Below are positions 22,771 to 53,816 of a DNA stretch of 64,000 nt, in pieces. Where the stretch lies: assembly GCA_046350695.1 (NCBI GenBank), contig JAXLZX010000003.1:2236-66235 (forward strand). Direction: 5' to 3'. How positions within the stretch are numbered: position 1 is the stretch's first letter; each line of letters starts with the position of its first letter. Position numbers and translations under genes: made by a program. This DNA comes from Candidatus Saccharimonadales bacterium (lineage in GTDB: Bacteria; Patescibacteriota; Saccharimonadia; Saccharimonadales; JACQNP01). The notes under the pieces are model-generated. The model saw only the letters and a list, made by a program, of their open reading frames with translations. It searched no databases and was not told the origin of the DNA.

Positions 22771-23001
22771 ATTCTAATTGTACCGTAAAGAGTTTTGACG
22801 GGCTGAAGTTATCGTCATTACAACATTACCTCAGAAAAAAATTTGGGAGCGGTTGCTAAGCATTTACAGATACAAAAAGATGAACGAGAATACCCTCTGG
22901 AACGCACGTAGAGCGTCTATGACGAGCTTTAACGCAGGAGTTAAAGAAACCCCCACCTGTCATAATTAGAGTAGGGGTTATTCAAATAAATAAGGAGATT
23001 T

Positions 23002-35292: not shown

Positions 35293-35381
35293 TCTCTCTC
35301 CTGTATGTTTATTACGATTTAGTGCTATTATAACAGATATAATCTGGTATAATAGGCAAGTTCCTTCCATTTATGCATTAA

Positions 35382-35456
35382 GCGGGTGTCGTATAACGGT
35401 TAATATACAAGTTTTCCAAACTTGCGATGGCGGTTCGATTCCGCCCACCCGCACCA
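35382..35456 (+). tRNA. tRNA-Gly (anticodon TCC), CCA encoded
   Basis: Acceptor GCGGGTG/CACCCGC, anticodon stem CAAGT/ACTTG with loop TTTCCAA, T arm GGCGG-TTCGATT-CCGCC. TGGTATAAT lies upstream. Confidence 0.85.
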
Positions 35457-35473
35457 CGTCGTAGTACGCTTCA

Positions 35474-35520
35474 ACCTTGCAAAGTTTTTAGCCACTTGTT
35501 TGCTAAAAACTCTACAAGGT
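35474..35520. repeat. 19-bp-stem hairpin flanked by direct repeats (GTCGTAGTACG / GTCTAGTACG)
   Basis: ACCTTGCAAAGTTTTTAGC, a 9-nt loop, then GCTAAAAACTCTACAAGGT (17 of 19 bp paired). No T-run follows. Confidence 0.6.
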
Positions 35521-35594
35521 CTAGTACGACTACTCCTTACGCTCGGTAAACTTTAATTATAATTAACTGGTTTATCTCGCACTATACAGTCTAT

Positions 35595-35714
35595 TAAACT
35601 AAGCGAAGCTGTTTGATAGATTTAGAGGAGTGGGCTTTGTTTGGTAAAAACCCTTGTTGGGCAAATTCATTTTGTCGACAATTGGTTTATCAAACTATTA
35701 CAAATCGACGATGC
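35595..35714 (+). repeat. conserved leader, copy B (paralogue of 21016-21131)
   Basis: Blocks AGGAGTGGGCTTTGT (35626-35640), GCAAATTCATTTT, ACTATTACA and CGACGA lie at almost the same spacing from the tRNA 5' end as in copy A. Confidence 0.6.
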
Positions 35715-35791
35715 GCCCCGGTAGCTCAGCTGGATAGAGCAAGTGGGTTCTAACCATTAGGTCGGGGGTTCGAATCCCTCCCGGGGTACCA
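35715..35791 (+). tRNA. tRNA-Arg (anticodon TCT), CCA encoded
   Basis: Acceptor GCCCCGG/CCGGGGT (G1 opposite T72), D arm GCTC-AGCTGGATA-GAGC, anticodon stem AGTGG/CCATT with loop GTTCTAA, T arm GGGGG-TTCGAAT-CCCTC. Confidence 0.85.
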
Positions 35792-37008
35792 TTCTAGACG
35801 GAGAGCCTCAAGAAGGCTCTTTTTCATCTGTTGAGATATTGTTCTAACCTCATTTAATTGTGCTACGAAGTGTTTTGTATTATCACGCAAGGGTAGCAAC
35901 CATTCGTAAGGTGTTATTTGGAGTTTGCCATCTATTAGCACTGGGTTCTGACCAAGTGCCAGCAAGATTTCCTTTTTATCAGCAATATCGCCGTTTATGA
36001 ACTTAGAGTTAGCGTTCATGAACTTACTTATCAGGTTAGTCATGTAGTCATACCAGCCTTCGGTATTCTAATTACTAGTAGCCTGTTGCTTGTGCAGCTC
36101 TTTTAATTTAGCCTTGAGTTTGGCGGATTTCTCAATAAATGTATCTTCGTCTACGAGCTTGCGAGTAGACATGTCTAACAGGGTATCAAGCTGGTCTTTT
36201 AAGCCCTTTATAGCCTGTTCCTGCATAGTTTCTACACTCTTGCGTTCTGGTATGTCAGCTTGAGCCATTTGGTTAATAGCGTCCATGCTCCAATCGTAAA
36301 GTTCTGGTATTAGCTCCCAGTTATTGAGTTCATCTACACATTCCTTGAATAGTTCATCTTCCGTTTTATAGCCATACTTCTTAATCTGACTGCATGGGCG
36401 TTCTCCAGTACAGTGATAGTAGGTATTTACATGCGTAACACCCTTAGAGTTAGTACGTTCCTTACTTTGAGCCGTAATCATACAGCCACATTCACCACAG
36501 CGTATAAAGCCACGTAGTACGAACTGTTTACGGGTAGCGAAACGCTTGCCACCATGACGACCTAGTAATAGTTGGATTTTGTCGTATTCTTCCATTGTCA
36601 TTAAGGCTGGAAAGTCTGCTGGATACATTTTGTCTTCATCATAGGGATCGGCACCCAACCAGCGTAGCGGACGTTACGGAACATATAGTAGAGCGATGAA
36701 CGGCCTATTGGCTTACCGCCAACCTTCTTGATTATATCTCTCGTAGAGGCTTTGAGCACATCAAAACGTTTCCATATTGGCTGTGGCTCTATTGCAGCCA
36801 ATTCAGGGTTTTTTTCGTACAGTTTCTGAAGCTCGTTAACCAATAGTATGTAGGCTCGGTTAATTTCTTGTATGTCTTCGTTTGGTGAAAGCCCAGCATT
36901 ATCAACCAAGTAGATATTCATAATCATACCCATGACAAGTAAATTCAGTTCACGAGCTACAGCGTAGTCGTTAACAGCCCCATCGTGTTTGGTTGCAGCA
37001 TCTCTCAT
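35750..37008 (-). pseudogene. large serine recombinase pseudogene (three frame fragments, catalytic N-domain missing)
   Basis: Fragments 36601-37008 (recombinase domain, ...SSLYYMFRNVRYAGWV), 36068-36658 (zinc ribbon FIRCGECGCMITAQ...YYHCTGERPC plus coiled coil) and 35750-36043 (C-terminal part) are collinear with the 21151-22770 protein. No resolvase-type Ser domain is present upstream. Confidence 0.75.
35802..35824 (+). terminator. intrinsic terminator after tRNA-Arg(TCT)
   Basis: AGAGCCT-CAAGA-AGGCTCT followed by TTTT. Confidence 0.6.
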
Positions 37009-37082
37009 TGGTTGCTGATTATAGGGTATTGGCTGTAGAGAGGTATATAGGCACTGGTGGTTGGTGGTAGGATGGAGTTGTT

Positions 37083-37235
37083 ATGATTCTGCTAATAATT
37101 CCGCTAATTGCATGTCTTCTGGTGGTTATTACTAGTTTTAGCAAAAAGCATCCATCGCCGAGAAACACAGCCCAGCACCAGCAAGATGACGAGCTAGTGG
37201 CCGTGATTTTGCCGACTGTCACCAAAGAGAACTGA
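37083..37235 (+). CDS. possible 50-aa single-pass membrane peptide
   Basis: MILLIIPLIACLLVVITSFSKKHPSPRNTAQHQQDDELVAVILPTVTKEN, with GGAG 4-5 nt upstream. It occupies the place where the recombinase catalytic domain should be encoded on the other strand. Confidence 0.3.
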   Translation: MILLIIPLIACLLVVITSFSKKHPSPRNTAQHQQDDELVAVILPTVTKEN

Positions 37236-37302
37236 CCAGCCCGAAAAACGCTCGTCTGTCATAATAGTAAGAGAGGGGCTAATACAAAAAGAAGGAGTTT
37301 TT

Positions 37303-37535
37303 ATGGCTATAAGTAACCCTGTGGGACGACCACAGTATTAAATATCAGAACCTTGCTGAGGCTGACTGATGCTTTGAAAAATAACTACAACGTCACTGAC
37401 AGTTGCAAATGGGTGGGTATCTCAAGGAATACGTACTACAGACACCTGGACAATGACATGGCGTTCGAAGCACGAGTGAATTACGCAATAGAGTGCAGAA
37501 ATAAAGTGTCTTTTAATTTTGACACAATTTTCTAG
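37303..37535 (+). pseudogene. frameshifted paralogue of the island-1 small HTH gene
   Basis: MAISNPVGRPQY* in frame 0, then ...LNIRTLLRLTDALKNNYNVTDSCKWVGISRNTYYRHL... in another frame. This is collinear with MTAKKAIGRPLKMDSRVITKLIAAIQTNSNITDACRYAGISRDTFYRHM. The promoter and SD regions are also homologous (CTGTCATAAT...AAGGAG). Confidence 0.65.
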
Positions 37536-37843
37536 GTTAACTTGTGATTTTGCACAAGATTTCAAGAAATTGGTGTCACTTAATTAAGGGGAGAAAATTG
37601 GCGTTATGGGTCAAAAATCTGGCGGAAAATTATATACGGCATGACCCTCGTTATATATCGTGCTCTAGATGAACGGGCTTTAATACCCTCTGTAAGCTAT
37701 CCAGGGGTCACAGGAGAGGTTTTAGGACAAAAGTTAGGTAAGGTTACACGTTGAAAATAAGTTGTGCTTTGACATCATTTTGTTCATTGACAAGCTTATG
37801 CTTGGGTTTCCCGTAACAAGTGTTTATAATTCTCTCTAAGAAT

Positions 37844-38536
37844 ATGAGTGAGAGCCTACACAAACCTACTATTGCTATATTAGCCTCAGGAAGTGGCTCT
37901 ACCGCCGAGGCATTTATTCACGCAACTCAAGACGGCCGTGTTTCGGCAGAAGTTGGTCTAATCGTATGCAACAACCCACCTGAAAAGGCTGGAATCTTTG
38001 CTAGGGCTGCTAAGTTAAATGCACTCTATGGACTTGATATTGAAACTGTAGAGATTAGTGGTCGTACACACCCCGATGGGAATGTTGGTCGTGGACAAAC
38101 ACTTAGCGAATCATCTGCTATTTGCAAACGTATTAGTGACGGTGGCTTTGCTCACGTAGCTCTTATGGGTTATATGAAAATGGTTCGTGGTGAACTTATT
38201 GAGGAGTACGGCTGGCAGCCGACCTATGATTCCATCTACCAAGCTAGAATGACCAATACCCACCCAGGTCCATTGCCAGAAACAGAAGACACGTACGGTA
38301 TACATACTTCTGAACGAGTTTTAGAACTAGGTATGCCAGCTTCACGCCACACTGTTCACTTAGTGGCTGACGGTATTGATAGAGGCCCAAAGATTGCCGA
38401 ACACCCAGTTGAAGTGATTGAGGGCGATACGGCACAAAGTTTGTTTGACAGAGTTCAGATAGTAGAAAAAGTAGCGTTGCCATACGTTATAGGTAAATTC
38501 ATAGACGAACAAGGAGACTATCTTGGCAATTCATGA
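37844..38536 (+). CDS. purN: phosphoribosylglycinamide formyltransferase
   Basis: Motifs IAILASGSGSTAEAF and NTHPGPLP, with a Asp-containing ADGIDRGPKI segment. The start is set at MSESLHK. Confidence 0.75.
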   Translation: MSESLHKPTIAILASGSGSTAEAFIHATQDGRVSAEVGLIVCNNPPEKAGIFARAAKLNALYGLDIETVEISGRTHPDGNVGRGQTLSESSAICKRISDGGFAHVALMGYMKMVRGELIEEYGWQPTYDSIYQARMTNTHPGPLPETEDTYGIHTSERVLELGMPASRHTVHLVADGIDRGPKIAEHPVEVIEGDTAQSLFDRVQIVEKVALPYVIGKFIDEQGDYLGNS

Positions 38537-41360
38537 GATTAGGGTCACGCCGATTGAGGGTGACCCAACTGGTCACGAAGTTCAGCAAGAAGCGGAACGC
38601 ACACTAGGTTTGGACAGTTTAGAAGCTGTTAGGACAGCAAGAGTATATCGTGTTCAGGGAGTTAGCGAAGAAGAAGCTCACACACTAGCAGGACAACTTT
38701 TTACAGACCCAGTGAGTGAGCAATACAGTTTAGACCAACCAGTAGGTTTTGAAACTCCTCACGTTGTTGAAGTAGCGTATAAGCCTGGCGTTATGAACCC
38801 AGAGGTATCTTCAATTATGAAAGCCGCTCAAGACCTAGGCATTAGCCCACAAGCAGTTGATTCTTCAAGAGAATATGCGTTTTTCGGTAATGTAGAACCA
38901 GCTCAAGTTGATGGTGTAGTTGGACGATTACTGATGAATAAGACCGTGGAACAGGTTGTTACCGAAAAGCCATCATCACTAACCTTTGAAGGAAGTGTTG
39001 GACCCGTCAATATTGTACCGATTAGAGAAGCTTCAGTTTCGCAATTAGCAGAGTTATCAAAAGATAAGCTATTCCTTAACGATGAAGAAATGGTTGTTGT
39101 CCAAAAACACTTCCGAAAGCTTGACCGTGACCCAACAGATGCTGAACTTGAAATTATCGCTGCACGTTGGAGTGAACACTGTGGACACAAGACATTCAAC
39201 GCAAAAGTTGTAGTTGATGGTGTCGAGAAAGAGCCGTTATACACACGAATCAAGAATGCAGCCGAAGAGCAATTCGGGGACTTAGTCGTTTCTGCATTTG
39301 GGGACAATTCGGGCGTTATGAGGTTTTATGACGGTCAAGCTATATGTGGCAAGGTAGAAACACACAATAGCCCGTCAGCTATTGAGCCTTATGGTGGTGC
39401 GATGACGGGTAGTGGTGGTGTGTTCCGTGACATTATGGGGACTGGTCAAGGTGCCAAGACAATCATATCTACCGACATGTTCTGTTTTGCCCTACCTGAC
39501 CTTGATGAGGGTCTTTTACCTTCTGGTACTTTGCACCCTGATTACCTACAGCGGCGAGTTGTACAAGGAGTGCGGGATTACGGCAATCGTATGGGTATCC
39601 CAACGGGCAATGGCTCTGTACATTATCACGAAGACTTTAGGGCTAAGCCTACTGTAATAGTCGGAGCATACGGCATTATGCCTGAGGCACGTGCTGAAAA
39701 GGGCGAACCACTCGTTGGCGACCTAGTTGTTATTATTGGTGGCAAAACAGGTCGTGATGGTATACACGGTGCGACTTTCTCATCAGGCGAAATGACTGAC
39801 CGTACAGCCAACGTGAATTCAAGTGCAGTACAAATCGGAAACGCTATTGAAGAAAAGCGTATGTTTGATGCCCTAATTGAAGCAAGAGATTTGGGATACA
39901 TTCGTGCATTAACCGATTGCGGTGCTGCTGGATTCTCATCTGCTATCGGTGAAATTGGTGAGAACGTAGGTTTAACCGTAGACATCAGCAAGGCACCGCT
40001 TAAATATCCAGGTCTAGCTCCTTGGGAAATTTGGCTTAGTGAATCACAAGAACGTATGGTTGCAGCAATATCACCCGACAACATAGAGGAGTTTCTTGCT
40101 GTTAGCCGTAAATACAATGTTGAATCTACCGTACTTGGCGTATTTGACGGTAGCCATACTCTAACCGTGAACTACGGCGAGCAAAATGTTGCAGAACTTG
40201 ACTATGAGTTTTTGTCTGACGGTCTACCGCAACGTGTTATGCAAGCACATTGGGAACGGGTTGATGTACCTGAAGTAACACCTGATATTCCACAAAACGA
40301 ACAAGAGTGGGTTGATAGAATTAAAGCTGTTTTGTCCCACGGTAACGTGTGTTCCAAAGAACCTATAGTCAGACAATACGACCACGGAGTTCAAGGTGGC
40401 AATGTTGTTTCGCCATTTGGCGGAATAAAGCAAGATGGACCAAATGACGCCTTGGTTGTACGACCAATACTTGATAAGCCTTATGGTGTAGTTCAATCTC
40501 ACGGCATGAACCCAATACTTAATAGATTAGACCCGTTTGAAGGGACAGTTTGGGCGATTGCAGAGGCGGCTGCAAATTATGTTTCTGCTGGCGGTAACAT
40601 TGACGAAGCGGCAGCAGTCGGTAATTACATCTGGCCATTTCCAGATGAAGAAGCCATGGGTTCGCTAGACCGTTCGGTTGACGCTGCCGTAGAAATGATG
40701 CACAGGTTAAAGCTTCCTGTTATATCGGGCAAAGATAGCCTTTCATCAACATACCGAGGTAAAGAAGGACAAGTTATCAAGATTCCACCTGTCTACACAA
40801 TGTCTATATTTGGTCGTATTCCTGACGTAGAAAAGACTATGACAAGCGACATAAAGCAAGCTGGTTCAACCTTGGTATTAGTAGGAAATCTAGGTGAAGG
40901 CATGGCAGGGTCGGCTTATTATGACGTTGTAGGCGGAAGTAGCAACAACATACCACTTGTTGATAAAGAAACTTTACCAGCCGTGCTTGGTTCAGTACAT
41001 CAAGCTATAGTCGGCGGTAAAGTCCTTGCGTGTCATGATGTGAGCGAGGGTGGTGTAATCTCGGCTGTTGCAGAAATGTGCTTTGGTGGCAATGTTGGCG
41101 TAGAACTCGAACCTAGTAATGTGTCAGCTGCTCGAATGGATAAGTTCCTGTTTAATGAAACGGCTGGCTGTTTTGTAGTCGAAGTTGAAAGTGACGAAGT
41201 AGCACACGAACTATTTGGCAATGTTCCATATCAAAAGCTAGGTCAAACAACTGCTGATAAAACTATAGAGGTGCGTCAGCAAAATGGAGTTGTCTTTAGC
41301 GTAGCAACAGACGAACTTAAGGGTGCGTGGCAAGCACCTATGAAAGGTATTTTTCACTAA
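38523..41360 (+). CDS. purL: phosphoribosylformylglycinamidine synthase subunit PurL with two N-terminal PurS-like repeats
   Basis: The core carries VETHNSPSAIEPYGGAMTGSGGV and GKTGRDGIHGATFSS, and is duplicated as in AIR-synthase-related folds. An extra ~165 aa at the N-terminus form two units of about 80 aa. Apparent TTG start, overlapping purN by 14 nt. Confidence 0.85.
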   Translation: MAIHEIRVTPIEGDPTGHEVQQEAERTLGLDSLEAVRTARVYRVQGVSEEEAHTLAGQLFTDPVSEQYSLDQPVGFETPHVVEVAYKPGVMNPEVSSIMKAAQDLGISPQAVDSSREYAFFGNVEPAQVDGVVGRLLMNKTVEQVVTEKPSSLTFEGSVGPVNIVPIREASVSQLAELSKDKLFLNDEEMVVVQKHFRKLDRDPTDAELEIIAARWSEHCGHKTFNAKVVVDGVEKEPLYTRIKNAAEEQFGDLVVSAFGDNSGVMRFYDGQAICGKVETHNSPSAIEPYGGAMTGSGGVFRDIMGTGQGAKTIISTDMFCFALPDLDEGLLPSGTLHPDYLQRRVVQGVRDYGNRMGIPTGNGSVHYHEDFRAKPTVIVGAYGIMPEARAEKGEPLVGDLVVIIGGKTGRDGIHGATFSSGEMTDRTANVNSSAVQIGNAIEEKRMFDALIEARDLGYIRALTDCGAAGFSSAIGEIGENVGLTVDISKAPLKYPGLAPWEIWLSESQERMVAAISPDNIEEFLAVSRKYNVESTVLGVFDGSHTLTVNYGEQNVAELDYEFLSDGLPQRVMQAHWERVDVPEVTPDIPQNEQEWVDRIKAVLSHGNVCSKEPIVRQYDHGVQGGNVVSPFGGIKQDGPNDALVVRPILDKPYGVVQSHGMNPILNRLDPFEGTVWAIAEAAANYVSAGGNIDEAAAVGNYIWPFPDEEAMGSLDRSVDAAVEMMHRLKLPVISGKDSLSSTYRGKEGQVIKIPPVYTMSIFGRIPDVEKTMTSDIKQAGSTLVLVGNLGEGMAGSAYYDVVGGSSNNIPLVDKETLPAVLGSVHQAIVGGKVLACHDVSEGGVISAVAEMCFGGNVGVELEPSNVSAARMDKFLFNETAGCFVVEVESDEVAHELFGNVPYQKLGQTTADKTIEVRQQNGVVFSVATDELKGAWQAPMKGIFH

Positions 41361-42143
41361 ATGAGTAACCCAGAAGTATGTGTGCTAAAAACAGATGGCA
41401 TTAACTGTGATGAAGAAATGGCAAATGCTTTTCAAGTAGCTGGAGCTACACCTGAAACAGTACACGTCAATCAACTGCGTAGTGGCGAGCGTCAGCTTGA
41501 CCAGTACGGGGTTTTAGCAATACCTGGCGGCTTCTCTTACGGTGATGATATTGCTTCGGGTAAGGTGCTAGCAACGGAACTTACATCTTATCTATCCGAC
41601 CAGCTACAAGACTTTGTTGATAAAGGTAAGCCTATTATTGGAATCTGTAATGGGTTTCAAGTGCTTGTTAGGACTGGATTGCTACCAAATCGTAGGCTAA
41701 ATGAACAGCAAGTAACACTTGCCGATAATGAAGTTGGAAGATTTGAATGTCGTTGGATTGACCTAGCTGTTGGTCAATCGGCTTGTAAGTTTGTAAGCCC
41801 AGAAGACTTTGCCGAGCAACCCATTCCAATGCAAACGGCTCATGGTGAAGGCAGATTCTTTGGTAGTGATGACGATATTCGCCAGCTAAAAGAAAACGGG
41901 CAAGTTGTTTTTCGTTATACTACTCCTGATTTAGGACAGCCGAATGGGTATCCTGAAAATCCAAACGGTGCGGTGGACGATATTGCAGGTATCTGTGACC
42001 CTGGTGGGCTAGTTCTTGGAATGATGCCTCACCCCGAACGGTCAGTGGCTGCTTTTCACCCACACCGAGTACGCACAGGAACTGCACGAAACGCAGCAAA
42101 CACAATTTTTAGTAATATCGTTGCTTACGCTAAGGAGATGTAA
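41361..42143 (+). CDS. purQ: phosphoribosylformylglycinamidine synthase glutaminase subunit
   Basis: Catalytic Cys at GICNGFQ and the His/Glu pair at MPHPER. The ATG lies directly after the purL stop. Confidence 0.9.
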   Translation: MSNPEVCVLKTDGINCDEEMANAFQVAGATPETVHVNQLRSGERQLDQYGVLAIPGGFSYGDDIASGKVLATELTSYLSDQLQDFVDKGKPIIGICNGFQVLVRTGLLPNRRLNEQQVTLADNEVGRFECRWIDLAVGQSACKFVSPEDFAEQPIPMQTAHGEGRFFGSDDDIRQLKENGQVVFRYTTPDLGQPNGYPENPNGAVDDIAGICDPGGLVLGMMPHPERSVAAFHPHRVRTGTARNAANTIFSNIVAYAKEM

Positions 42144-43276
42144 TGGCTGAACAAAGACTACCCATACAAGACGTCAATATAGAGCTTGGCGATGATGTTT
42201 CAAGAATGCTTTATGAAGCTTCAAAGCAAACCCACGACAACCGACCTGGCTTACTTGTTGAGTTTCACGAGTCATTTTCTGGGCTACGAGCAATTCCAGG
42301 TACAATGCTTAAAGATGTAGATAATATGTATCTTAATCTGGCTTTTGACGGAGTCGGTACAAAAGTTGAAGTGTCAGAAAGGCTTGATGACCACTCGGTT
42401 GTCGCACACGATTTGTTTGCAATGGTATGTGATGACGCAGTTGTGCGAGGGGCTGAACCCGTTGCAATAGGCTCAATCTTGGACGTACGGCAACTTAACG
42501 ACACAGAACATACGAGAACGGCAGTTAGACAGTTATCACAGGGCTATGTTGAAGCAGCTAGGGCTGCTGGGGTAGTCGTTGTTAATGGTGAAGTTGCAGA
42601 GCTTGGTGACAGAGTTGGTGGTTACGGTGATTTCAATTACAACTGGGGCGCAACAGTACTTTGGTTTGCTCATAAAGACAGGATTCTAACTGGACATCAG
42701 ATACAACCTGGGGATTCATTGGTTGGACTTGCCGAACATGGCTTTCGCTCAAATGGCATAACTGATGTACGAAAGGCTATGCTGGAACACTACGGACCAC
42801 AATGGCAAGATGTAGTGGTTCAAGAACTTGGCGAACTTTCACTAGGAAAACTTGTACAAAAACCGTCAATTATCTACTCACGCTTTGTATCGGAACTTAC
42901 TGGTGGCTATGATATTGAAAAAGAACCCAAGGCTACCGTAAGTGGCGTGGCACATATTACTGGTGGCGGTCAGCCAAGTAAACTAGGAAGAATGCTTGAA
43001 CCGTCTGGGCTTGGTGTCACGATTGACACACCTATTGAACCACCCCGCATAATGACAGAAGTACAAAAGCTACGTGGGTTCTCTGACGAAACTGCGTACG
43101 GTAAATGGCATTTGGGTTCAGGAATGGTAATTGCTACCTCTGAACCAGAAAAAGTACTCGCAGAAGCAGGAAGTCAAGGGCTAGTTGCCCAAACTATTGG
43201 TCAGGTCACAGATGAGCCAGGCATTCGTATCAAGAACCGTGGTGCAGTTCAAGACGCCGAGTGGCTTAATTTCTAG
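42143..43276 (+). CDS. purM: phosphoribosylformylglycinamidine cyclo-ligase (AIR synthase)-like
   Basis: Motifs LAFDGVGTKVEV and DLFAMVCDDAVVRGAEP, with a C-terminal AIRS_C-like half. ATGA overlap with purQ. At 377 aa it is slightly longer than typical PurM. Confidence 0.75.
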   Translation: MAEQRLPIQDVNIELGDDVSRMLYEASKQTHDNRPGLLVEFHESFSGLRAIPGTMLKDVDNMYLNLAFDGVGTKVEVSERLDDHSVVAHDLFAMVCDDAVVRGAEPVAIGSILDVRQLNDTEHTRTAVRQLSQGYVEAARAAGVVVVNGEVAELGDRVGGYGDFNYNWGATVLWFAHKDRILTGHQIQPGDSLVGLAEHGFRSNGITDVRKAMLEHYGPQWQDVVVQELGELSLGKLVQKPSIIYSRFVSELTGGYDIEKEPKATVSGVAHITGGGQPSKLGRMLEPSGLGVTIDTPIEPPRIMTEVQKLRGFSDETAYGKWHLGSGMVIATSEPEKVLAEAGSQGLVAQTIGQVTDEPGIRIKNRGAVQDAEWLNF

Positions 43277-43277
43277 T

Positions 43278-43472
43278 CTATAAATCTGCAAGCTTATCAC
43301 AGTTCACCCCACTAGCTGCCTTTTGTTGCTGATCCATTTGTATAAGGACATCAAAATAATTTACTAGATTATAAATGGCTTCTTGGTATTCTTCGTCAGT
43401 GTCGTATGTAATACCAGACTTAGCAAAAGCAACTTTCCAGCTTTCTAAGTCTTTACCTGTGATTGTACGCAT
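43278..43472 (-). CDS. hypothetical 64-aa protein
   Basis: MRTITGKDLESWKVAFAKSG..., with GGGAG 6-7 nt upstream. The longer ORF-track start looks spurious. Confidence 0.4.
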   Translation of the reverse strand: MRTITGKDLESWKVAFAKSGITYDTDEEYQEAIYNLVNYFDVLIQMDQQQKAASGVNCDKLADL

Positions 43473-43665
43473 AATTTGCTCCCATATTATTGTGATAGGA
43501 GTATAGACTATATAGGTAGGCACGGTGGGTGGGTAGTTCATAGAGCATTTGACCTATGATAAGCAAGGAATAATGGCCTAACCTGCTCTATAATGCTGTA
43601 CCAAAATACAACATTTTTCCGTAAAATAGATGTGAGCGTAGTTACAGCACTCTACTAATAAAAGT

Positions 43666-43690
43666 ATCAGTCTTATTGACTGATTTTTTT
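43666..43690 (+). terminator. intrinsic terminator with no obvious gene directly upstream on the plus strand
   Basis: ATCAGTC-TTATT-GACTGAT followed by T7. An A-rich tract lies upstream, so it could work in both directions. Confidence 0.55.
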
Positions 43691-43794
43691 ACTGGGGGAA
43701 TACTTCAAAGTGAAATATAATTTACAAAGTAAAATTATTATGCTATAATTGGGAACAGTTTTACATATCTCTTTAGGAAATTTAGTAGAATTCG

Positions 43795-43854
43795 GATGAA
43801 TGCTCTCTTTTAGCAATAGCGATTCATCAAATTGATGAATGAAAGGTATTCATG
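43795..43854 (+). promoter_or_regulatory. 5' leader of the DEAD-box helicase gene with four alternating copies of a 7-mer (alternative hairpins around SD and AUG)
   Basis: GATGAAT (43795), ATTCATC (43822), GATGAAT (43834) and ATTCATG (43848, which includes the start codon). The SD GAAAGG lies between the last two copies. Confidence 0.4.
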
Positions 43855-45054
43855 TCATATTCAAAAAAACGCTCTTTTGGTGAGCGTAAAAATAATGTGC
43901 GTTATCGCGGTAATAAATCTAGCCGTAATGGCCGTAAAAAACAATCTATAAATCCATCGAGATTTATTAATAAGAACATCAAAGAAAAGACGATTAATTT
44001 AGCTCAGGGTGTTGATCATGAGTTTACTGATTTTAACTTTACAGAAAAGCTAGAAAATAATCTGGCTTCAGCCGGATTAGTTACGCCTAGCCCAATACAG
44101 GATAAAACTATCCCTCTAGCAATGAATAAGGCAGATGTTATCGGCCTCGCAAATACTGGTACGGGTAAGACGGCCGCATTCTTGCTGCCAGTTCTGGAGA
44201 AACTACAGAAAAGCCGTAAATATAACTCAGTACTCATAATGGCTCCAACGCGCGAGCTTGCACAGCAAATAGATACTGAGTTTAAGAAATTTGCATTCGG
44301 AATGAAACTGTTTGCCGGAGTCTGTGTTGGTGGAGTTAATATAAATGGCCAGATTAGACAACTTAAGCGTGGTCAACATGTAATAATAGGTACGCCAGGT
44401 AGGTTAAAGGACTTGCTTGACAGGGGAATTTTAGAAACGACCCAAATTGATACTTTGGTTCTAGACGAGGCCGACAGAATGTTAGACATGGGATTTATTA
44501 ATGATATTCGATACATAGTTAGTCGACTACCTGAACGTCGTCAGACACTTTGTTTTAGCGCAACAATGAGTCCTGCGGTCGAGGTGCTTACTAGGGATTT
44601 CATGGTTAATCCGGTAGTGGTGTCTGTTAAGGTCACGGAAACCAGTGATCACATCTATCAAGATATTGTGACTTTTCAAGATGATGAGCATAAAAAGGAT
44701 CAATTAATCGAAATGCTCAGAACAAATGAATTTGAAAAGGTTATTGTCTTCGGCGAGACGAAATTTGGTGTTCAAAGGTTATCTGACAGGCTTTTAAAAG
44801 AGGGAATTACCTCTAATGCTATACATGGAAACAAGAACCAGGGACAGCGAACAAAGGCACTTAACTCCTTTAGGTCAAATCAATCTAGTGTGTTAGTCGC
44901 AACAGATGTAGCGGCACGTGGGCTCGATATTCCAAACGTTACACATGTTATCAACTATGACGTGCCACAAAGCTATGATGACTACATACATCGAATAGGT
45001 AGAACAGGTCGTGGGGGCAAGACTGGGATAGCACTGACGTTTATTAAAGAATAG
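43852..45054 (+). CDS. DEAD-box ATP-dependent RNA helicase
   Basis: Q motif, AxTGTGKT (NTGTGKTAAF), DEAD (VLDEADRM), SAT and HRIGRTGR, with a basic N-terminal tail. Confidence 0.92.
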   Translation: MSYSKKRSFGERKNNVRYRGNKSSRNGRKKQSINPSRFINKNIKEKTINLAQGVDHEFTDFNFTEKLENNLASAGLVTPSPIQDKTIPLAMNKADVIGLANTGTGKTAAFLLPVLEKLQKSRKYNSVLIMAPTRELAQQIDTEFKKFAFGMKLFAGVCVGGVNINGQIRQLKRGQHVIIGTPGRLKDLLDRGILETTQIDTLVLDEADRMLDMGFINDIRYIVSRLPERRQTLCFSATMSPAVEVLTRDFMVNPVVVSVKVTETSDHIYQDIVTFQDDEHKKDQLIEMLRTNEFEKVIVFGETKFGVQRLSDRLLKEGITSNAIHGNKNQGQRTKALNSFRSNQSSVLVATDVAARGLDIPNVTHVINYDVPQSYDDYIHRIGRTGRGGKTGIALTFIKE

Positions 45055-45152
45055 TGAGACCAAAAGCATTTTAGTGATATCCACAGGTTGCGTGGGCGAT
45101 TATCTGAAAAGTTTGCAAAAATAAACTTTAGTATAATATAGTTACTAGTACT

Positions 45153-45719
45153 ATGGTAAATAAATCAAAAAATAAAAAGTCCAAAGAATCAGAAACAATG
45201 ATTAAATGGCTCAAGTCATTGCTCTTAGTACTAATATTTATATTTATTGGAGTACTTATCTCGTACTTGGTATTACTAGTAAACGTCGACACAAATGACC
45301 ATAATACTACTACTTCGAAGGTAACCCTTTCAGTTACACCATTATCTGAAAAGCTAAGTTTGAATCAAGACTTTACATTTAATGTATATGTAGATACTGA
45401 TAATCAATCAGTTAACGTAGTGACTGCAAAATTAAATTACCCATCTGATAAATTTGAATTCGTTAATATAGATACATCAGAAAGTGAATTTGGAGTCCAG
45501 GCAGTTAGTACGGGTGGATCTGGTAATATTGAAATAACAAGAGGGAGTGTAACTCCAATAAATAGCACCAATGCTTTAGTTGGCAAGGTAACACTCAAGC
45601 CTATAGTATCATCCGAGAAGGCTATTATTGGGTTTACTTCTAGCGCAAATGTCATAAGTTCAACTACAAACACCAACATTTTGAACAAAACAATTAACGG
45701 TTCATTCTCGATACTTTAG
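45153..45719 (+). CDS. membrane-anchored cohesin-like domain protein
   Basis: TM helix (LLLVLIFIFIGVLISYLVLLV), then a beta-rich domain of about 130 aa with the cohesin-like pattern FTFNVYVDTD...VNVVTAKLNYPSDKFEFVNI...ALVGKVTLKP. Confidence 0.45.
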   Translation: MVNKSKNKKSKESETMIKWLKSLLLVLIFIFIGVLISYLVLLVNVDTNDHNTTTSKVTLSVTPLSEKLSLNQDFTFNVYVDTDNQSVNVVTAKLNYPSDKFEFVNIDTSESEFGVQAVSTGGSGNIEITRGSVTPINSTNALVGKVTLKPIVSSEKAIIGFTSSANVISSTTNTNILNKTINGSFSIL

Positions 45720-45772
45720 ATCTGAGTCTATTGAAGTAGTAGAGTTAATAGGGTATAATGACCCCTGTTCTT

Positions 45773-45850
45773 GGCGGGCGTAGCTCAGTTGGTTAGAGCG
45801 TCTGATTGTGGTCCAGAAGGTCGTGGGTTCAATTCCCATCGTTCGCCCCA
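45773..45850 (+). tRNA. tRNA-His (anticodon GTG) with encoded G-1 and CCA
   Basis: G-1 (45773) lies opposite discriminator C73. Acceptor GCGGGCG/CGTTCGC, anticodon loop TTGTGGT, T arm GTGGG-TTCAATT-CCCAT. TATAAT lies about 15 nt upstream. Confidence 0.85.
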
Positions 45851-45895
45851 AGAAAAACTTGACAAAACAAATGAACTTATATATAAATATGTATT

Positions 45896-47641
45896 ATGAG
45901 GGCAAAAGCCCTTTTTTTGTTTATGAAAGTATTTTTTAAATATAAATTTCAATTCGTCTTAGCAATATTTAGTTTGTTTAGTGTGCTAACGTTGTGTCAA
46001 ACAAAAGCAGATGCATTAGTATCGAATACTGCGGCTGAGGCAAAAGTATCATTTACGTTTGATGATGGTCTGGCTAGTTCGTATACAAAAGCTGCTCCTG
46101 TTCTTGCCCAGTATGGTTTCAGCGGTACAAGCTATGTGGCTACCGGGTGTATTGACATGGTTACGATTCCCAACAAATGTGCCGCAGATAACGATCTGCC
46201 ATATATGTCCTGGTCACAAGTAACCGAACTCCAGAATACATATGGGTGGGAAATTGGGGCCCACAGTGCGACCCATCCATTAATGTCAGAAATCAATGCT
46301 TCAAAATTAGAAAAAGAGGTTGCTGATAGTAAGAGTGCATTAGTGAGCAGAGGTTTTAGCGCTCAAGCTTTTGCAACTCCATATGGTGACTATAATGACG
46401 CAACGTTAAAAGCGATCGCTAAATACTACACTAGTCATCGTGGATTTGCGGACACTGGTTATAACTCTTGGCCATACAGTAATTACTTATTGCGCGTTCA
46501 ACAGGTTCAATATGGCGTAAGTGTCGACACGGTAAAATCATATATTGACCAGGCTGCAGCAACTAACACATGGCTTATATTGGTTTTTCATGAGGTAAAT
46601 GAAAGTCCGAGTGTTGATCCGGATGACTATCAATACAGTACAACAGATTTAGGAGCAATAGCATCATATGTAAAATCTAGTGGTATTAAAGTTACCAATG
46701 TAAGTGATGGTTTAGTCACTGGCCAGGCCGAAGACAATAAACTTACAGATCCAACCAATGGAACAGTAATTGGTAATGGATGGACAACAGACAGGCCAGG
46801 TAAAGTAAAAGTTGATACAACGTCTAGGGGTAATGCTCCGGAATCCAAGAATTCAATAAAGATTACATCAGTTAAGACAAATGAAACACATTTATTTTCC
46901 CCCACAATTTCAGTAAACCCTAACAGTACATATGTTATTAAAGGCTATGCTGATGTAAAGAATAGTAAAGGGGGAGAATTAGGTATTTATATTGACGAAT
47001 ATAATATTGACGGTGACTGGATTAGTGGTCAATACATGCAGACAATCTCAGTATGGTATAACAACGAGCTAACTTTTGCATATAAATCTACATCAACAAA
47101 AGTAGCAAAGGCCAGACTGCAGCTTATAATATCGGCTGCTTCTGGAATGATTGTATATGTAGATAATATACAGTGGCTAGAAACGACTAGTGGGCCCGCT
47201 CCAGAACCAGAGGAAAATCTTATTAGCAACGGTACTTTTGATATTGATATGAATGGCTGGACAACCGATAATCCTTCAGCAATTACCTGGTCAAGTATTC
47301 CGGGCAATAATACGATAAGGGTAACGAATGCCCCAAATATAAATGCACATTTATTCTCGTCAGTTTTAGACGTTAGTTCTGAAGCATCATACACTGTTAG
47401 TATGGACGTTAATGTCGTAAGTATAGTTGGTGAAATTGGCTATTACGTTGACGAGTATGATGTGTTGGGTAATTGGATTAGTGGACAATATTTATATACA
47501 ATAAATAGTTCTGTTAATCATGTTAATTTTCATTACACTCCAAGTTCTGGTCAGGTCGATAAGGCAAGTTTGCAAATAATCCTTACTCCGGGAACCGGAA
47601 CCGAAGCCTATCTCGATAATGTGCGTTGGACTAAACAGTAA
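45896..47641 (+). CDS. secreted polysaccharide deacetylase (CE4) with two C-terminal CBM_4_9-like repeats
   Basis: NodB-type motifs (FTFDDGLASSY, GWEIGAHSATHP). Two units of about 140 aa each begin NGWTTD and end with ...YVDNIQW / ...YLDNVRW. Confidence 0.75.
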   Translation: MRAKALFLFMKVFFKYKFQFVLAIFSLFSVLTLCQTKADALVSNTAAEAKVSFTFDDGLASSYTKAAPVLAQYGFSGTSYVATGCIDMVTIPNKCAADNDLPYMSWSQVTELQNTYGWEIGAHSATHPLMSEINASKLEKEVADSKSALVSRGFSAQAFATPYGDYNDATLKAIAKYYTSHRGFADTGYNSWPYSNYLLRVQQVQYGVSVDTVKSYIDQAAATNTWLILVFHEVNESPSVDPDDYQYSTTDLGAIASYVKSSGIKVTNVSDGLVTGQAEDNKLTDPTNGTVIGNGWTTDRPGKVKVDTTSRGNAPESKNSIKITSVKTNETHLFSPTISVNPNSTYVIKGYADVKNSKGGELGIYIDEYNIDGDWISGQYMQTISVWYNNELTFAYKSTSTKVAKARLQLIISAASGMIVYVDNIQWLETTSGPAPEPEENLISNGTFDIDMNGWTTDNPSAITWSSIPGNNTIRVTNAPNINAHLFSSVLDVSSEASYTVSMDVNVVSIVGEIGYYVDEYDVLGNWISGQYLYTINSSVNHVNFHYTPSSGQVDKASLQIILTPGTGTEAYLDNVRWTKQ

Positions 47642-49926: not shown

Positions 49927-50952
49927 TCATTTAGCGTATCCACCGATTAGCGCTAAGGCGACACCTAGTGCTGCGCAAACTTGGGCAATAACCCAAAAAC
50001 GCATAGTAACCTTTGTTTTTGGCCAACCCATGGCTTCAAAATGATGGTGTATAGGCGCTGCTATAAATATTTTTCTATGTAGTATTCTCTTGGAGAGTAT
50101 CTGCACGAGACTAGAGCCAGCTTCGGCTACAAATATAAGGCCGATCAATGGCAAAAGAATCAAAGTATCAGTAAGCATGGCAATTACCCCCAAGGATGTA
50201 CCTAGTGAAAATGACCCTACATCGCCCATAAAAAATCTTGCCGGCGGTATATTGAACCAAACATATGATAAAAGCGCTCCAATTATTGTCATGCAGAAAA
50301 CTGAAATACCAAAATTTCCCTGCAGGGCTGCAATAACGCCGAATGCACCATAAGCACTAATCAGTAGCCCACCGGCTAAACCATCCATTCCATCGCTAAT
50401 GTTTACCGCATTTCCTGTGGCGACTACTACTAGAATAAACAGGGGTATGAGCAGCCATCCAACAGTGAGGTTACCATAAAAAGGTAAATGAATTGTGTCA
50501 TAACCGAGTTTAAAGTAGAAGAACCAGGCGCCAATGGCAGCTACCACGGTAATCATGGCAAATTTTACTTGTGGTCTAATTCCAGCAAAACCGCCACCCT
50601 TTCCCATGACATTCAATACGTCATCAATTAGGCCGACTACGCCCCCGCCGATTAAAGCTGCTAACGGTAGCCAGGTTTGTGCTCGATCTAGATTAAATAG
50701 AACAGTCACTATAGTTGTAGAAATAATAATAACCAGCCCCGCCATTAGTGGTACAGTTCGTTTGATGCGTAATTTACTTATTACTTCGAGTTGTTCACCA
50801 GTTGTGGAATGAGTTCTTGAGCGTTTCCAGAGTTTATGCTTGAATGCGAAATGTGTATAAATTGGTGTTAGGAGCATTGCTATTAGGAATGATGCTATGC
50901 TTAATATTAGACTTACGGTTACTTCATGTATGAACTCTTCGGATGAAAACAT
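49927..50952 (-). CDS. mraY: phospho-N-acetylmuramoyl-pentapeptide transferase
   Basis: 10-TM protein with NAVNISDGMDGLAGG, FMGDVGSFSLG and PIHHHFE. Confidence 0.9.
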   Translation of the reverse strand: MFSSEEFIHEVTVSLILSIASFLIAMLLTPIYTHFAFKHKLWKRSRTHSTTGEQLEVISKLRIKRTVPLMAGLVIIISTTIVTVLFNLDRAQTWLPLAALIGGGVVGLIDDVLNVMGKGGGFAGIRPQVKFAMITVVAAIGAWFFYFKLGYDTIHLPFYGNLTVGWLLIPLFILVVVATGNAVNISDGMDGLAGGLLISAYGAFGVIAALQGNFGISVFCMTIIGALLSYVWFNIPPARFFMGDVGSFSLGTSLGVIAMLTDTLILLPLIGLIFVAEAGSSLVQILSKRILHRKIFIAAPIHHHFEAMGWPKTKVTMRFWVIAQVCAALGVALALIGGYAK

Positions 50953-51090
50953 AAAACCCTTAATATTTTGTTTAATACAGTCTGGATAATTTTAACATAT
51001 GACCAAAGAAAAAGTCTTGATAACAAATTTACTTGGTAGATGAAAATCACCGGAACTTGATGCAGACAGTGTATTATTTAGTAAGTAAGT

Positions 51091-51675
51091 ATGAATAAAA
51101 TAATTGAATCATCACACCCAGTTATAATTTTTATAAGAGGTTTACCAGGTAGCGGCAAGTCTTATTTAGCTCGCGAGTTAGAAAAAGCTATTAGTAACGA
51201 TGTTGTGGCATTAGACCCGGACAGAATCGATTTTGGTAGTCAAGAGTATGCTTCGCATGTAGAAAAATGTAAAAATGAAGGGGTTGATGAAGCGCTACAT
51301 CCTTACAGATTTTTGCGAGGACAAGCATACCAGGCTATTAGAGATAACGGGGTTGTTATATGGAATCAGCCATTCACTAACCTAGAGATTTTTAATAAGA
51401 TGGTAGCAAATTTGCGTATTCAAGCTGATGAAAACAAATCAGAATTGACAATACTAGTTGTTGAGATGGTGATAAATGACAATGTTGCAAAAAAAAGAGT
51501 TATGGTCAGGAAGAGAGAAGGTGGACATGGTCCGTCTAATGATACATTCAATAGGTTCATTAATGACTATAAAAGCTTCAGAAACGATGGCTATAATACG
51601 GTTACGATTTCTGGAGAAGATAATGTGAAAGAATCTGTACAAAAAGTACTAAACGCCTTGTATGGTCTTTTGTGA
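51091..51675 (+). CDS. P-loop kinase-like ATPase (AAA_33-like)
   Basis: Walker A is GLPGSGKS. 194 aa. The substrate cannot be called. Confidence 0.5.
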   Translation: MNKIIESSHPVIIFIRGLPGSGKSYLARELEKAISNDVVALDPDRIDFGSQEYASHVEKCKNEGVDEALHPYRFLRGQAYQAIRDNGVVIWNQPFTNLEIFNKMVANLRIQADENKSELTILVVEMVINDNVAKKRVMVRKREGGHGPSNDTFNRFINDYKSFRNDGYNTVTISGEDNVKESVQKVLNALYGLL

Positions 51676-51684
51676 GTCTACTAG

Positions 51685-52287
51685 CTAAGTTTTAAAATAC
51701 CGTCTTAGATCGCTGATTATTTGAGTTGGGTTTTCCGCCAAAATGGTATGGAATCCCATTGCTATTGCCGGGTCTAAATTCTTTTGTTTATCGTCAATAA
51801 AAATTGATTTATCAGGCGTAGTATCTAGATATTTTAGCGCAAGGTCATAAATTTCTTTTTCGGGCTTGGCAAGACCTACTTTGCAAGAAGCTATTACCAC
51901 ATCGAAGTGTTCATAACACCCGGCTGACATTAAGACGTTGTAAGTCGGCTCGATTACATTAGTTAGGAGGGCTACTTTATAGCCGTTGGCTTTAGACTCA
52001 TTAACTAATGATAAAATCTTTTCGTTAACGATTAGGCCTTTCCATTTTTTGAACTCATCAGATATCGTGTCGTGTACGGAAAGATTATATTTTTGATTTA
52101 GCTGACTCCAGTATTCCTTTTCAGAAATCTCACCTCTCATAAAGCTTATCTTGTAAGTCGCAAGAATATCCTCTATCTGTTTGTGAGTTGCACCAATATT
52201 TATAAGTAGTTTTTCTAAAAAATCATCAGCTGGGTCACCAGCAATAACGCCACCCCAGTCGAAAAAGACGGTGTCTATATTATTCAT
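51685..52287 (-). CDS. HAD-superfamily hydrolase
   Basis: Motif I is FFDWGGV, and motif IV is IFIDDKQKN. Confidence 0.65.
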   Translation of the reverse strand: MNNIDTVFFDWGGVIAGDPADDFLEKLLINIGATHKQIEDILATYKISFMRGEISEKEYWSQLNQKYNLSVHDTISDEFKKWKGLIVNEKILSLVNESKANGYKVALLTNVIEPTYNVLMSAGCYEHFDVVIASCKVGLAKPEKEIYDLALKYLDTTPDKSIFIDDKQKNLDPAIAMGFHTILAENPTQIISDLRRYFKT

Positions 52288-52292
52288 ACAAT

Positions 52293-53816
52293 TTACAGCT
52301 CATGAATTACCGTAATATTTGCCCCTATCGCATTTAGGCGTTCGGCAATGTCTTCGTACCCACGGTTTATGGTGTAAACATTACGAAGCATACTAACTCC
52401 ATTAGCTGCCAGCATGCCTATTAGAAGTAGACTGGCTGGCCTCAGCGCTGGCGGGCAGACAACATCGGCAGATGTGAATTTAGTCGGGCCATTTATATAA
52501 ACCCTATGCGGGTCAGCGAGTTCAACATTCATACCTATTTTAGTCATCTCGGTGAAGTATAAGGCTCGGTTTTCGAATATCCAGTCGTGTATCAGTGTAC
52601 GACCTTTAGCAACTCCACATATTGGCACAAAATATGGTATGCAGTCAGGATTTATTCCTGGCCACAAGTTAGGGTGTAGTTTGTCTATTGGTGCTGTGAG
52701 CTCGCCATTATGTTTTTCGATTACTAAGTCAACCAAATCGATTGCACCATTATCTGACTTATATCTTGCGGTCTTCTTGAATTTTAGTCCCATTTTCTTC
52801 AACTTCAGAAGCTCTAGGGCTATCCAATCAATCGGCACCCTCTTAATTGTTAGTTTAGAGTTGGTTGTAATGGCTGCCGAAATAAAGAACATAGCCTCGA
52901 TTGGATCTTCTGTTGGGGCGAAAGTAACATTTTTCTTTATGTAGGGTACGCCAGTAACCTCTAGATTTGATGCTTTTAGGTCTTTGGTCTTGACACCAAG
53001 TTTATTGAGGAAAAGACATAAATCTTGAACCATGTAATCGGCGCTCGAACCATGAATTGTGGTAACGCCTTTTGTGCGAGCCGCAGCCATGAGCACATTG
53101 TTGGTTACTGTATTGCCAGACTCATACAGAACAACGTGGTCGTCAGGGCGTTTTTTGCTTACTGTGACTTGATAATGCCCCGTGTGGGCGACTACATTTA
53201 GGCCAAATTCTTCTAGTGCAAAGAGATGTGGTGTTACGGTTCTGGTTCCAAGTTTACAGCCACCTGCATAAGGTATTTTAAATTCATTGAATTCATGCAT
53301 TAATGGGCCAAGAAGCATGAGTACACTTCTTGTTTTACGTGCCGATGACGAATTTATATTGCTTAGGTCGAGTTTTTCGGGTCGCCTAATCTCGAGATCG
53401 TTATTTGATGACCAACGAATCTTAACACCAATACTCTCAAGAACCTCTACGATACGGTTAACTTCCTCAATCCTAGGAAAAGATTTAAACTTTGTTACGC
53501 CGTGGTTTAGTAGACTTGCACACAACAAAGCCACGGCGGCATTCTTGCTTTTTTTCAAGACCACTGAGCCGCTCAGTTCCGTACGACCCTCTATACGTAG
53601 GTTTATGCCACCGCCTCCTATAGATATGAGTTGCTTGTTAAGTACATCACTTACTCGTGCTAGAGTTTCAATACTGAGGTTTTGCTTGCCATGCTCCATG
53701 CGGTTTACGGCAGATTGGCTTGTTCCTAGTCTCCTTGCGAACTCAGCTTGGGTAAGGCCTCTTTCTTGCCTAATCTGATAAATAAGGTTACCGATTTTTT
53801 CGTTGTTCGATGACAT
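52293..53816 (-). CDS. murA: UDP-N-acetylglucosamine 1-carboxyvinyltransferase fused to an N-terminal XRE-type HTH domain
   Basis: Residues ~8-62, IGNLIYQIRQERGLTQAEFARRLGTSQSAVNRMEHGKQNLSIETLARV, form an XRE HTH. The remaining ~440 aa are MurA-like, with the active-site loop PYAGGCKLGTRTV (Cys present). Confidence 0.85.
   Translation of the reverse strand: MSSNNEKIGNLIYQIRQERGLTQAEFARRLGTSQSAVNRMEHGKQNLSIETLARVSDVLNKQLISIGGGGINLRIEGRTELSGSVVLKKSKNAAVALLCASLLNHGVTKFKSFPRIEEVNRIVEVLESIGVKIRWSSNNDLEIRRPEKLDLSNINSSSARKTRSVLMLLGPLMHEFNEFKIPYAGGCKLGTRTVTPHLFALEEFGLNVVAHTGHYQVTVSKKRPDDHVVLYESGNTVTNNVLMAAARTKGVTTIHGSSADYMVQDLCLFLNKLGVKTKDLKASNLEVTGVPYIKKNVTFAPTEDPIEAMFFISAAITTNSKLTIKRVPIDWIALELLKLKKMGLKFKKTARYKSDNGAIDLVDLVIEKHNGELTAPIDKLHPNLWPGINPDCIPYFVPICGVAKGRTLIHDWIFENRALYFTEMTKIGMNVELADPHRVYINGPTKFTSADVVCPPALRPASLLLIGMLAANGVSMLRNVYTINRGYEDIAERLNAIGANITVIHEL

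Follow-up and report, generated by a model that had tools for sequence, protein, structure and literature searches.

How did an operon for part of purine synthesis come to lie beside the broken gene of a site-specific recombinase in a bacterium with a very small genome? The locus lies in a metagenome-assembled genome of a member of the Saccharimonadales (TM7), an assembly of 0.79 Mb in 19 contigs with an estimated completeness of ~72%; the window, which is the whole 64,000-nucleotide stretch of DNA analyzed, corresponds to C3:2236-66235 of that assembly. Patescibacteria, including Saccharibacteria, have tiny genomes and usually lack purine synthesis (bioRxiv 10.64898/2026.09.16.751625). A first-pass annotation made from the letters alone recognized two islands in the window and proposed that the second, referred to here as island 2, is a captured metabolic module whose vehicle has been inactivated. 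This proposal is upheld by an empty site in relatives, Pur proteins incongruent with the host, a different native pur locus, backbone ends shared with other elements and genuine frame breaks. Island 2, at 35792-43603, is best read, with a probability of roughly 0.8, as the immobilized remnant of a large serine recombinase (LSR) integrative element on which the purine (pur) cassette arrived and whose vehicle was later inactivated.

The organism is frequent in activated-sludge and wastewater metagenomes, with at least 60% of sampled words recovered in 20 runs. Comparisons were made with 61 related genomes, among which G001 to G005 are genus and family mates, with the intact elements L106, L108, L112, L113 and L116, and with L120, a pur-bearing copy that has the same element ends. 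tRNA genes were called with ARAGORN and Rfam, and protein domains were assigned with Pfam and NCBIfam equivalog cutoffs.

Boundaries and Integration Site

Island 2 is ~7.8 kb long and is bounded on both sides by the hexamer GTACCA, the left copy of which belongs to a tRNA gene.

35715-35791, plus strand: tRNA-Arg(TCT), the integration target (ARAGORN, Rfam)
35786-35791: left attachment (attL) core GTACCA, the last six bases of tRNA-Arg(TCT)
43507-43603, no strand assigned: right-end backbone, from a three-way alignment of the window, L120 and L113, with the right attachment (attR) core GTACCA at 43598-43603

This tRNA-Arg(TCT) has an acceptor stem of the native TCT type, as in genus mates, and its CCA is followed at once by element sequence (TTCTAGACGG...). 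An identical form of left junction is present in L106, L108 and L120, at tRNA-Arg(TCG), and in L113, at tRNA-Arg(GCG). The right end, ~99 nt, is common to the window, L120 and L113 (84% identity between the window and L113 over 99 nt by blastn) and terminates in ...CTCTATAATGCTGTACCAA, with divergence immediately beyond; in the three-way alignment, homology stops right after GCTGTACCAA in all three sequences. Island 2 thus has the short shared core in attL and attR of an LSR element, and ends identical to those of elements at separate insertion sites (tRNA-Arg TCT, TCG and GCG). The right end was first placed at 43690, fewer than 90 nt past its actual position, 43603.

A search with 12-mers for a direct repeat of the tRNA-Arg 3′ end returned nothing but the T-arm that tRNA-Arg(TCG) at 57363 has in common with it; the core itself is only 6 nt long and was revealed by the comparison of elements. 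For L106 and L108, no convincing attR match was obtained using the sequence 3′ of native tRNA-Arg(TCG). Close to the right end of the element, a sequence of 26-29 nt, ACTATATAGGTAGGCAYGGTGGGTGGGTAG, is found at 43507-43535, and an inverted copy of it stands just upstream of the recombinase gene in the intact elements L106, L108, L112, L113 and L116 (~9735-9763). The two copies may constitute an operator or promoter pair.

Absence of the Island from Close Relatives

In G001 to G005 the conserved gene order is P-type ATPase, tRNA-Gly, tRNA-Arg(TCT), tRNA-His, PDA/MurA-HTH/GlyA/MurB and tRNA-Arg(TCG). The interval between tRNA-Arg(TCT) and tRNA-His measures 9,982 bp in the genome studied here versus 0.6-1.5 kb of unrelated small genes in these mates, all five of which lack the insert at this site while retaining both flanks. 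Synteny, which had been put forward as a check on the captured-module proposal, therefore places the block at the 3′ end of a tRNA gene and shows it missing from the same site in close relatives, as in tRNA-associated islands. Within the contig data, no joint with long sides that skips the island was found; tRNA-Arg/tRNA-His joints considered as candidate empty sites were rejected, having sides of only 20-33 nt and representing tRNA look-alikes from other organisms.

Decay of the Recombinase and Regulatory Genes

The left part of the element, read from the tRNA, holds the remains of the recombinase gene.

35750-36729, minus strand: large serine recombinase pseudogene, corresponding to residues ~220-553 in the intact 553-aa homologues
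36730-36750, no strand assigned: internal-deletion junction, from the gene order of the intact elements (L106, L108, L112, L113, L116) and homology maps
36751-37008, minus strand: 5′ fragment of a backbone gene, ~85 codons, fused in frame to the recombinase remnant

Three open pieces are present on the minus strand, 37008-36601 (A), 36658-36068 (B) and 36043-35750 (C), and their read-through matches many intact proteins of 541-553 aa (P0001 to P0007) at 85-88% identity. These intact homologues carry Resolvase (PF00239), Recombinase (PF07508) and zinc-ribbon (PF13408) domains. A tblastn search with P0002 found residues ~220-553 alone represented, at 36729-35750, the 3′ end of the remnant extending antisense 42 nt into tRNA-Arg(TCT). 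The residues from 1 to ~220 have no counterpart in the window and none of the pieces gives a PF00239 match, in agreement with the first-pass statement that the catalytic serine domain is lacking; island 2 is therefore a remnant of an LSR member rather than a working member. Residues ~232-544 share 85-90% identity with homologues that carry PF07508 and PF13408, assigning the remnant to the Recombinase and zinc-ribbon architecture, the Zn_ribbon_recom match of the remnant itself being weak (E = 7e-5; 23.6 bits, below the Pfam cutoff of 25.3). By sequence the family is far from solved structures, with 3g13 as the sole match (E = 2e-4).

The recombinase had been described as three out-of-frame pieces, and the pieces do occupy 35750-37008 on the minus strand; B and C, however, share one frame and are split by an in-frame TAG at 36068-36070 (Glu in homologues), leaving the A/B junction as the sole frameshift. 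Here one nucleotide has been lost between 36649 and 36650: L120 reads CCT GAT and the window reads CC- GAT. Piece A also does not belong wholly to the recombinase. Its first ~85 codons (37008-36751) are the 5′ end of a neighboring backbone gene, matching residues 1-81 of a 268-aa protein of L106 at 33-34% identity (E about 6-8e-9). In intact elements this gene encodes 243-365 aa and is located beside, and divergent from, a gene for a helix-turn-helix (HTH) regulator. The fragment is fused to recombinase codon ~220 because of an internal deletion of ~3.3 kb, in which recombinase codons 1 to ~220, four small or medium-sized genes of the backbone and the bulk of the 243-365-aa gene were lost.

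Beyond the deletion junction the left backbone continues with the following features.

37083-37235, plus strand: small conserved open reading frame (ORF) preceding the HTH gene, its 50-aa product having a single hydrophobic helix and a charged tail
37256-37305, plus strand: HTH promoter and leader, composed of CTGTCATAAT (extended -10-like box), AAGGAG and ATG
37303-37535, plus strand: HTH regulator pseudogene of a 77-aa family, with a 1-nt deletion at ~37331-37333
37669-37741, plus strand: conserved ~70-nt motif at the end of the left backbone, with the cargo starting just beyond

The single frameshift first noted in the HTH gene is confirmed by comparison with intact 77-aa homologues: these start MTYSKGVGRPTKMNIRT, whereas the window encodes MAISNPVGRPQY* in one frame and TTVLNIRTLLRL... 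in another, the 12 N-terminal codons sitting in the other frame and terminating in TAA. The predicted HTH product shares 61-63% identity with its L106 and L108 counterparts and 34% with the HTH protein of island 1, and its HTH Pfam matches are weak. The region around 37083-37235 had been regarded as unrelated sequence; on the contrary, intact elements conserve the protein sequence of its 50-aa ORF, and when this is aligned with its L106 homologue, conservation is seen in the C-terminal half (..DDEL..ILPT..K..*).

Assembly errors do not account for the frame breaks. Four separate studies (2015, 2024, 2025 and 2025) yielded contigs that reproduce every lesion with no insertions or deletions and a single nucleotide polymorphism, and one contig of 32 kb spans 35300-46000.

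The pur Cassette and Its Foreign Origin

The cargo consists of an intact operon with its own promoter.

37787-43287, plus strand: pur cassette with its own promoter (Pfam and NCBIfam; boundaries shared with copies elsewhere)
37844-38536, plus strand: purN, in an ORF open from 37820, the most likely start being ATG 37844 as in homologues
38523-41360, plus strand: purS-purL fusion (purSL)
41361-42143, plus strand: purQ
42143-43276, plus strand: purM

As reported at first pass, the four genes are intact and tightly coupled, with overlaps of 14, 0 and 1 nt between the ORFs 37820-38536, 38523-41360, 41361-42143 and 42143-43276. These are the only copies of the genes in the assembly and they are under strong purifying selection, the ratio of nonsynonymous to synonymous substitution rates (dN/dS) against the G061 copy being 0.014-0.05 for all four. 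PurL and PurQ score above their equivalog cutoffs (TIGR01736, 536 versus 525.75; TIGR01737, 196.2 versus 177.8), and all four Pur enzymes are predicted to be active.

Both the composition and the phylogeny of the cargo deviate from those of the host. The GC content of the cassette is 45.1% versus 40.2% (z = 3.3), the highest of any 5.5-kb window of the assembly, and its tetranucleotide distance falls in the 99th percentile; the compositional check suggested with the first-pass annotation thus came out in favor of capture, as did the phylogenetic one. PurSL was found in 12 of the 61 relatives, and identities to the window for PurSL and for GlyA, respectively, were 93% and 68% in G061, 78% and 55% in G017, and 73% and 72% in G060, against 56% and 83% in G005, 50% and 82% in G002, and 36% and 82% in G001. 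G003 has no PurSL and a GlyA that is 80% identical. In the PurSL tree, the window falls within a clade of 14 Saccharibacteria members that does not include G001, G002 or G005. These three mates carry purN-SL-Q-M at another locus, between homologues of C2:71204-72481 and tRNA-Glu(CTC), where no pur remnant was detected in the present genome, a 702-aa ORF (C2:72852-74957) being found there instead. A different pur operon at another locus in the mates, and none at that locus here, shows xenologous replacement. The pur operons of G001, G002 and G005 are strongly divergent from each other despite their shared locus.

In other genomes the cassette occurs in at least seven different contexts. Its boundaries are common to L020, and nearly so to L119, L121 and L125, in surroundings that are unrelated. 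In L022 and L026 it sits between genes that are adjacent to each other in the genome studied here; in L119 it is beside a restriction-modification system, in L121 a 36-nt relic from the left end of this very element stands 60 nt away, and in L124 it accompanies an N-terminal fragment of another serine recombinase. In L020 (G061), it is part of a tyrosine-integrase element located at a split tRNA-Met.

Among genome-resolved copies of the cassette, the closest is that of L020 (3391-15519), in which the order is the 5′ half of tRNA-Met, a tyrosine integrase overlapping it, an HTH_17 excisionase, two DUF5659 genes, a terminase-small-like HTH gene and the pur cassette, followed by further non-core genes up to the contig end. 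At L019:9659-10624 (G046), a purN gene of 78% identity is followed by a PurS fragment (67%) that breaks into stop codons, ~1.2 kb from tRNA-Gln(CTG); the locus appears to be a copy from the same cassette clade in decay.

Intact Relatives and the Cargo Slot

The family to which island 2 belongs has a constant left backbone, consisting of the recombinase gene, four to five small genes, a divergent small ORF with the 77-aa HTH gene and the ~70-nt motif, and a right backbone of about 100-300 nt terminating in GTACCA. The motif, which occurs once in the window and is unique in the genome, is present in all five intact elements, and these diverge after it; the cargo slot is the segment between the motif and the right end. 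In L113, which has an intact recombinase and is located at tRNA-Arg(GCG), this slot contains a copper-resistance cluster. In L120, at tRNA-Arg(TCG), a recombinase remnant (residues 240-553, 90% identical) is accompanied by the motif, the pur cassette (78.5% nucleotide identity) and orf87, which precede the same right end. The same ends surround pur genes in the window and L120 and copper genes in L113, and the pur operon is thus the content of the cargo slot within the element ends.

43278-43541, minus strand: orf87, in the right part of the element, with no family match

The product of orf87 is 89% identical in L120, and in L113 just the first ~12 codons and the upstream region are conserved. 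L108 has two copies of the ~70-nt motif (1652-1724 and 5945-6011), which flank its copper cluster. The motif was considered as a riboswitch and this was dropped, as it has no Rfam match and its fold z-scores are not significant.

Proposed Course of Events and Alternative Explanations

Taken together, these observations favor the following order of events. In this family, insertion takes place at GTACCA, with which tRNA-Arg genes end, and the recombinase gene runs antisense into the tRNA at its 3′ end; the slot holds a self-promoted purN-purSL-purQ-purM operon here and a copper-resistance cluster in intact relatives. The element would have arrived with the pur cassette already aboard. The ~3.3-kb internal deletion would then have taken the catalytic half of the recombinase, the remainder of which would have gained the 1-nt deletion and the nonsense codon, and the HTH gene would have been frameshifted. 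The cargo, kept under strong purifying selection, would now be a permanent part of the chromosome; excision of the island should be impossible because no cognate recombinase is left.

Three other accounts of the locus were weighed against this immobilized-vehicle reading. The least credible is that the frame breaks are artefacts of assembly or binning and the recombinase is truly intact, an account prompted by the metagenomic origin, the 19 contigs and the incomplete recovery of the genome; the contigs of the four studies agree without inserted or missing letters apart from one substituted base, the missing catalytic domain is more than a frameshift could explain, and both flanks are syntenic with genus mates. 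It is also very improbable that the pur operon is native and vertically inherited and that a recombinase element merely inserted alongside and decayed. Operons beside tRNA genes are common and pur genes occur in several Saccharimonadales, but the operon is followed by backbone sequence containing the attR core, the genus mates have no operon here and carry theirs at another locus, PurSL and GlyA identities are incongruent and the cassette is the GC outlier of its genome. A somewhat stronger competitor, still unlikely, is that the cassette entered the cargo slot of an element already resident, or even dead, for example from a co-resident tyrosine-integrase element such as that of G061, the LSR element having served as a landing pad. 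The boundaries of the cassette itself (37768/37787-43287) are sharp and common to L020, L119, L121 and L125, the copper cargo of L108 between two ~70-nt motifs suggests that insertion at the motif is possible, and no intact element bearing pur genes was found. The arrangement of backbone, pur and backbone with identical ends recurs, however, at a different tRNA-Arg isoacceptor in L120, which is most simply explained if the cassette was aboard before at least one integration.

Several points nevertheless weigh against the favored account. Both pur-bearing copies, the window and L120, are without the recombinase N-terminus, and therefore the cassette could have entered a resident, even dead, element; the state of L120 could moreover derive from a window-like state by one more deletion, in which case the two copies are not independent. 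The L020 tyrosine-integrase element and L119 show that the cassette has more than one means of moving. Homology gives no confirmation of the chromosomal side of attR, the DNA 3′ of tRNA-Arg(TCT) being unconserved among relatives, and the dN/dS of the recombinase remnant (0.14 versus 0.11 in intact pairs) gives no clear sign of relaxed selection. With regard to the cargo, PurN and PurM score below their equivalog cutoffs (TIGR00639, 92.3 versus 150.1; TIGR00878, 150.7 versus 236.35), with the Pfam domain present in each, and are divergent members whose functions are suggested by operon context. Searches with Levyibacteriota PurB, PurE, PurF, PurD and putative PurC queries and with PF01071 and PF01259 found no purD, purC, purE, purB or purF in this ~72%-complete assembly, and no metatranscriptome holding this region was found. 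G017, which is 97% complete, is also without PurD and PurC, and the cassette may represent an orphan module for the steps from glycinamide ribonucleotide to aminoimidazole ribonucleotide (GAR to AIR).

Neighboring Genes and Other Recombinase Loci

Outside the element, the surrounding genes include the following.

35382-35456: tRNA-Gly
43852-45054, plus strand: DEAD-box RNA helicase, outside the element, within the variable tRNA-Arg/tRNA-His interval
45774-45850, plus strand: tRNA-His, at which synteny with genus mates resumes

The segment 43604-45773, with the DEAD-box helicase gene and orf188, lies outside the element and has a GC content of 36.8%. The helicase was rejected as part of the island, being absent from L120 and L113 and different in GC, though it is also missing from this site in relatives, and so it cannot serve as the fixed flank it had been taken for. 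It is the only copy in the assembly and shares 76% identity with that of G013 (GlyA 82%) and only 47-49% with the helicases of genus mates, in which the gene occupies three different contexts; no native DEAD-box copy and no pur remnants were found elsewhere in the genome. The gene may be a xenologous replacement within the variable tRNA-Arg/tRNA-His interval.

The gap between tRNA-Gly and tRNA-Arg(TCT) (35457-35714) is 258 nt here and 1-21 nt in G001, G002, G004 and G005, and in G003 it holds a gene for a 249-aa metallophosphoesterase. Further downstream, 49930-52296 carries glycosyltransferase-4 and zeta-toxin/AAA_33-like genes that are also found in L108 and not at this position in G003; it is a further variable spot of the same neighborhood.

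Elsewhere in the assembly, C1:85716-88091 contains a copper-resistance cluster (CsoR, P-type ATPase) with 75-80% protein identity to cargo of the L108 type, 1.4 kb from tRNA-Gly(GCC) (C1:84276-84351), and no backbone sequence was detected beside it. Large serine recombinase loci at C16:7851-8654 and C1:73608-74796, with 28-31% identity to P0002, abut tRNA-Arg(GCG) and tRNA-Leu(GAG). Counting islands 1 and 2, there are at least four tRNA-linked serine recombinase loci in the 0.79-Mb assembly.

Relation to Known Systems and Significance

Large serine recombinases are familiar from the integrases of phiC31, Bxb1, A118 and TP901-1, the ccr genes of SCCmec, and TndX of Tn5397. The intact relatives of island 2 share the Resolvase/Recombinase/zinc-ribbon architecture of these elements, and the family also resembles them in the very short core between attL and attR and in the cargo beside the integrase, with recombination that would likewise be unidirectional. 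Unlike them, the island 2 family targets the last bases of tRNA-Arg and has a recombinase gene that extends across the attachment site to end inside the tRNA, and the copy in island 2 is without the catalytic domain. Islands at tRNA genes with decayed integrases, and the tycheposons of Prochlorococcus, likewise insert at tRNA 3′ ends, bring varying metabolic or stress genes on a shared backbone, are missing from close relatives and have mobility genes in decay. Their recombinases are tyrosine recombinases, whereas here a serine recombinase is involved, in an ultra-small Saccharibacteria epibiont, with part of the purine pathway as cargo.

Within the window, the nearest counterpart is island 1, at tRNA-Pro, with a recombinase gene at 21151-22770 and an HTH gene at 23002-23232. 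The module order of the two islands had been said to match, and the succession of tRNA, antisense recombinase, divergent HTH gene and cargo is indeed shared, but intact relatives of island 2 carry four to five extra genes between recombinase and HTH. The recombinases are only 29-36% identical and the tRNA targets differ. The claim that the HTH leaders of the two islands can be aligned also stands, the CTGTCATAAT..AAGGAG..ATG leader being common to island 1 (22957-23004) and intact L106, except that the island 1 motif begins at 22957 and not at 22967.

Near-complete de novo purine pathways have been reported in Ca. Lutisaccharimonas, from the Saccharimonadia of activated sludge (bioRxiv 10.64898/2026.09.16.751625). 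Both are wastewater Saccharimonadia with purine genes that are otherwise rare in Patescibacteria; in the genome studied here, by contrast, only the GAR-to-AIR steps were found, and on the remnant of a mobile element. No specific prior description of such elements in Saccharibacteria was found in the literature.

A wider proposal, offered tentatively and as something that may well prove incorrect, is that the tRNA-Arg-targeting serine recombinase family acts as a shuttle with an exchangeable slot, carrying metabolic or stress cassettes, such as the GAR-to-AIR segment or the copper-resistance genes, among distant Saccharibacteria, that useful cargo has become trapped time and again when the catalytic half of the recombinase was deleted, and that the purine segment would make use of intermediates from the host bacterium. 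The window, L120 and L121, which retains only the 36-nt relic of the left end, would then represent three stages of lock-in.

A tRNA-linked island with a decayed integrase is a well-known kind of locus, and the value of island 2 is that of a well-resolved case in an under-studied phylum. The gain of metabolic genes in Saccharibacteria and other Patescibacteria is poorly documented, and this locus provides a concrete, bounded example, with a defined vehicle, cargo slot and cassette, the same cassette occurring in at least seven contexts and the same backbone occurring with different cargo. The family also offers natural attachment sites and intact recombinases that could be tested.

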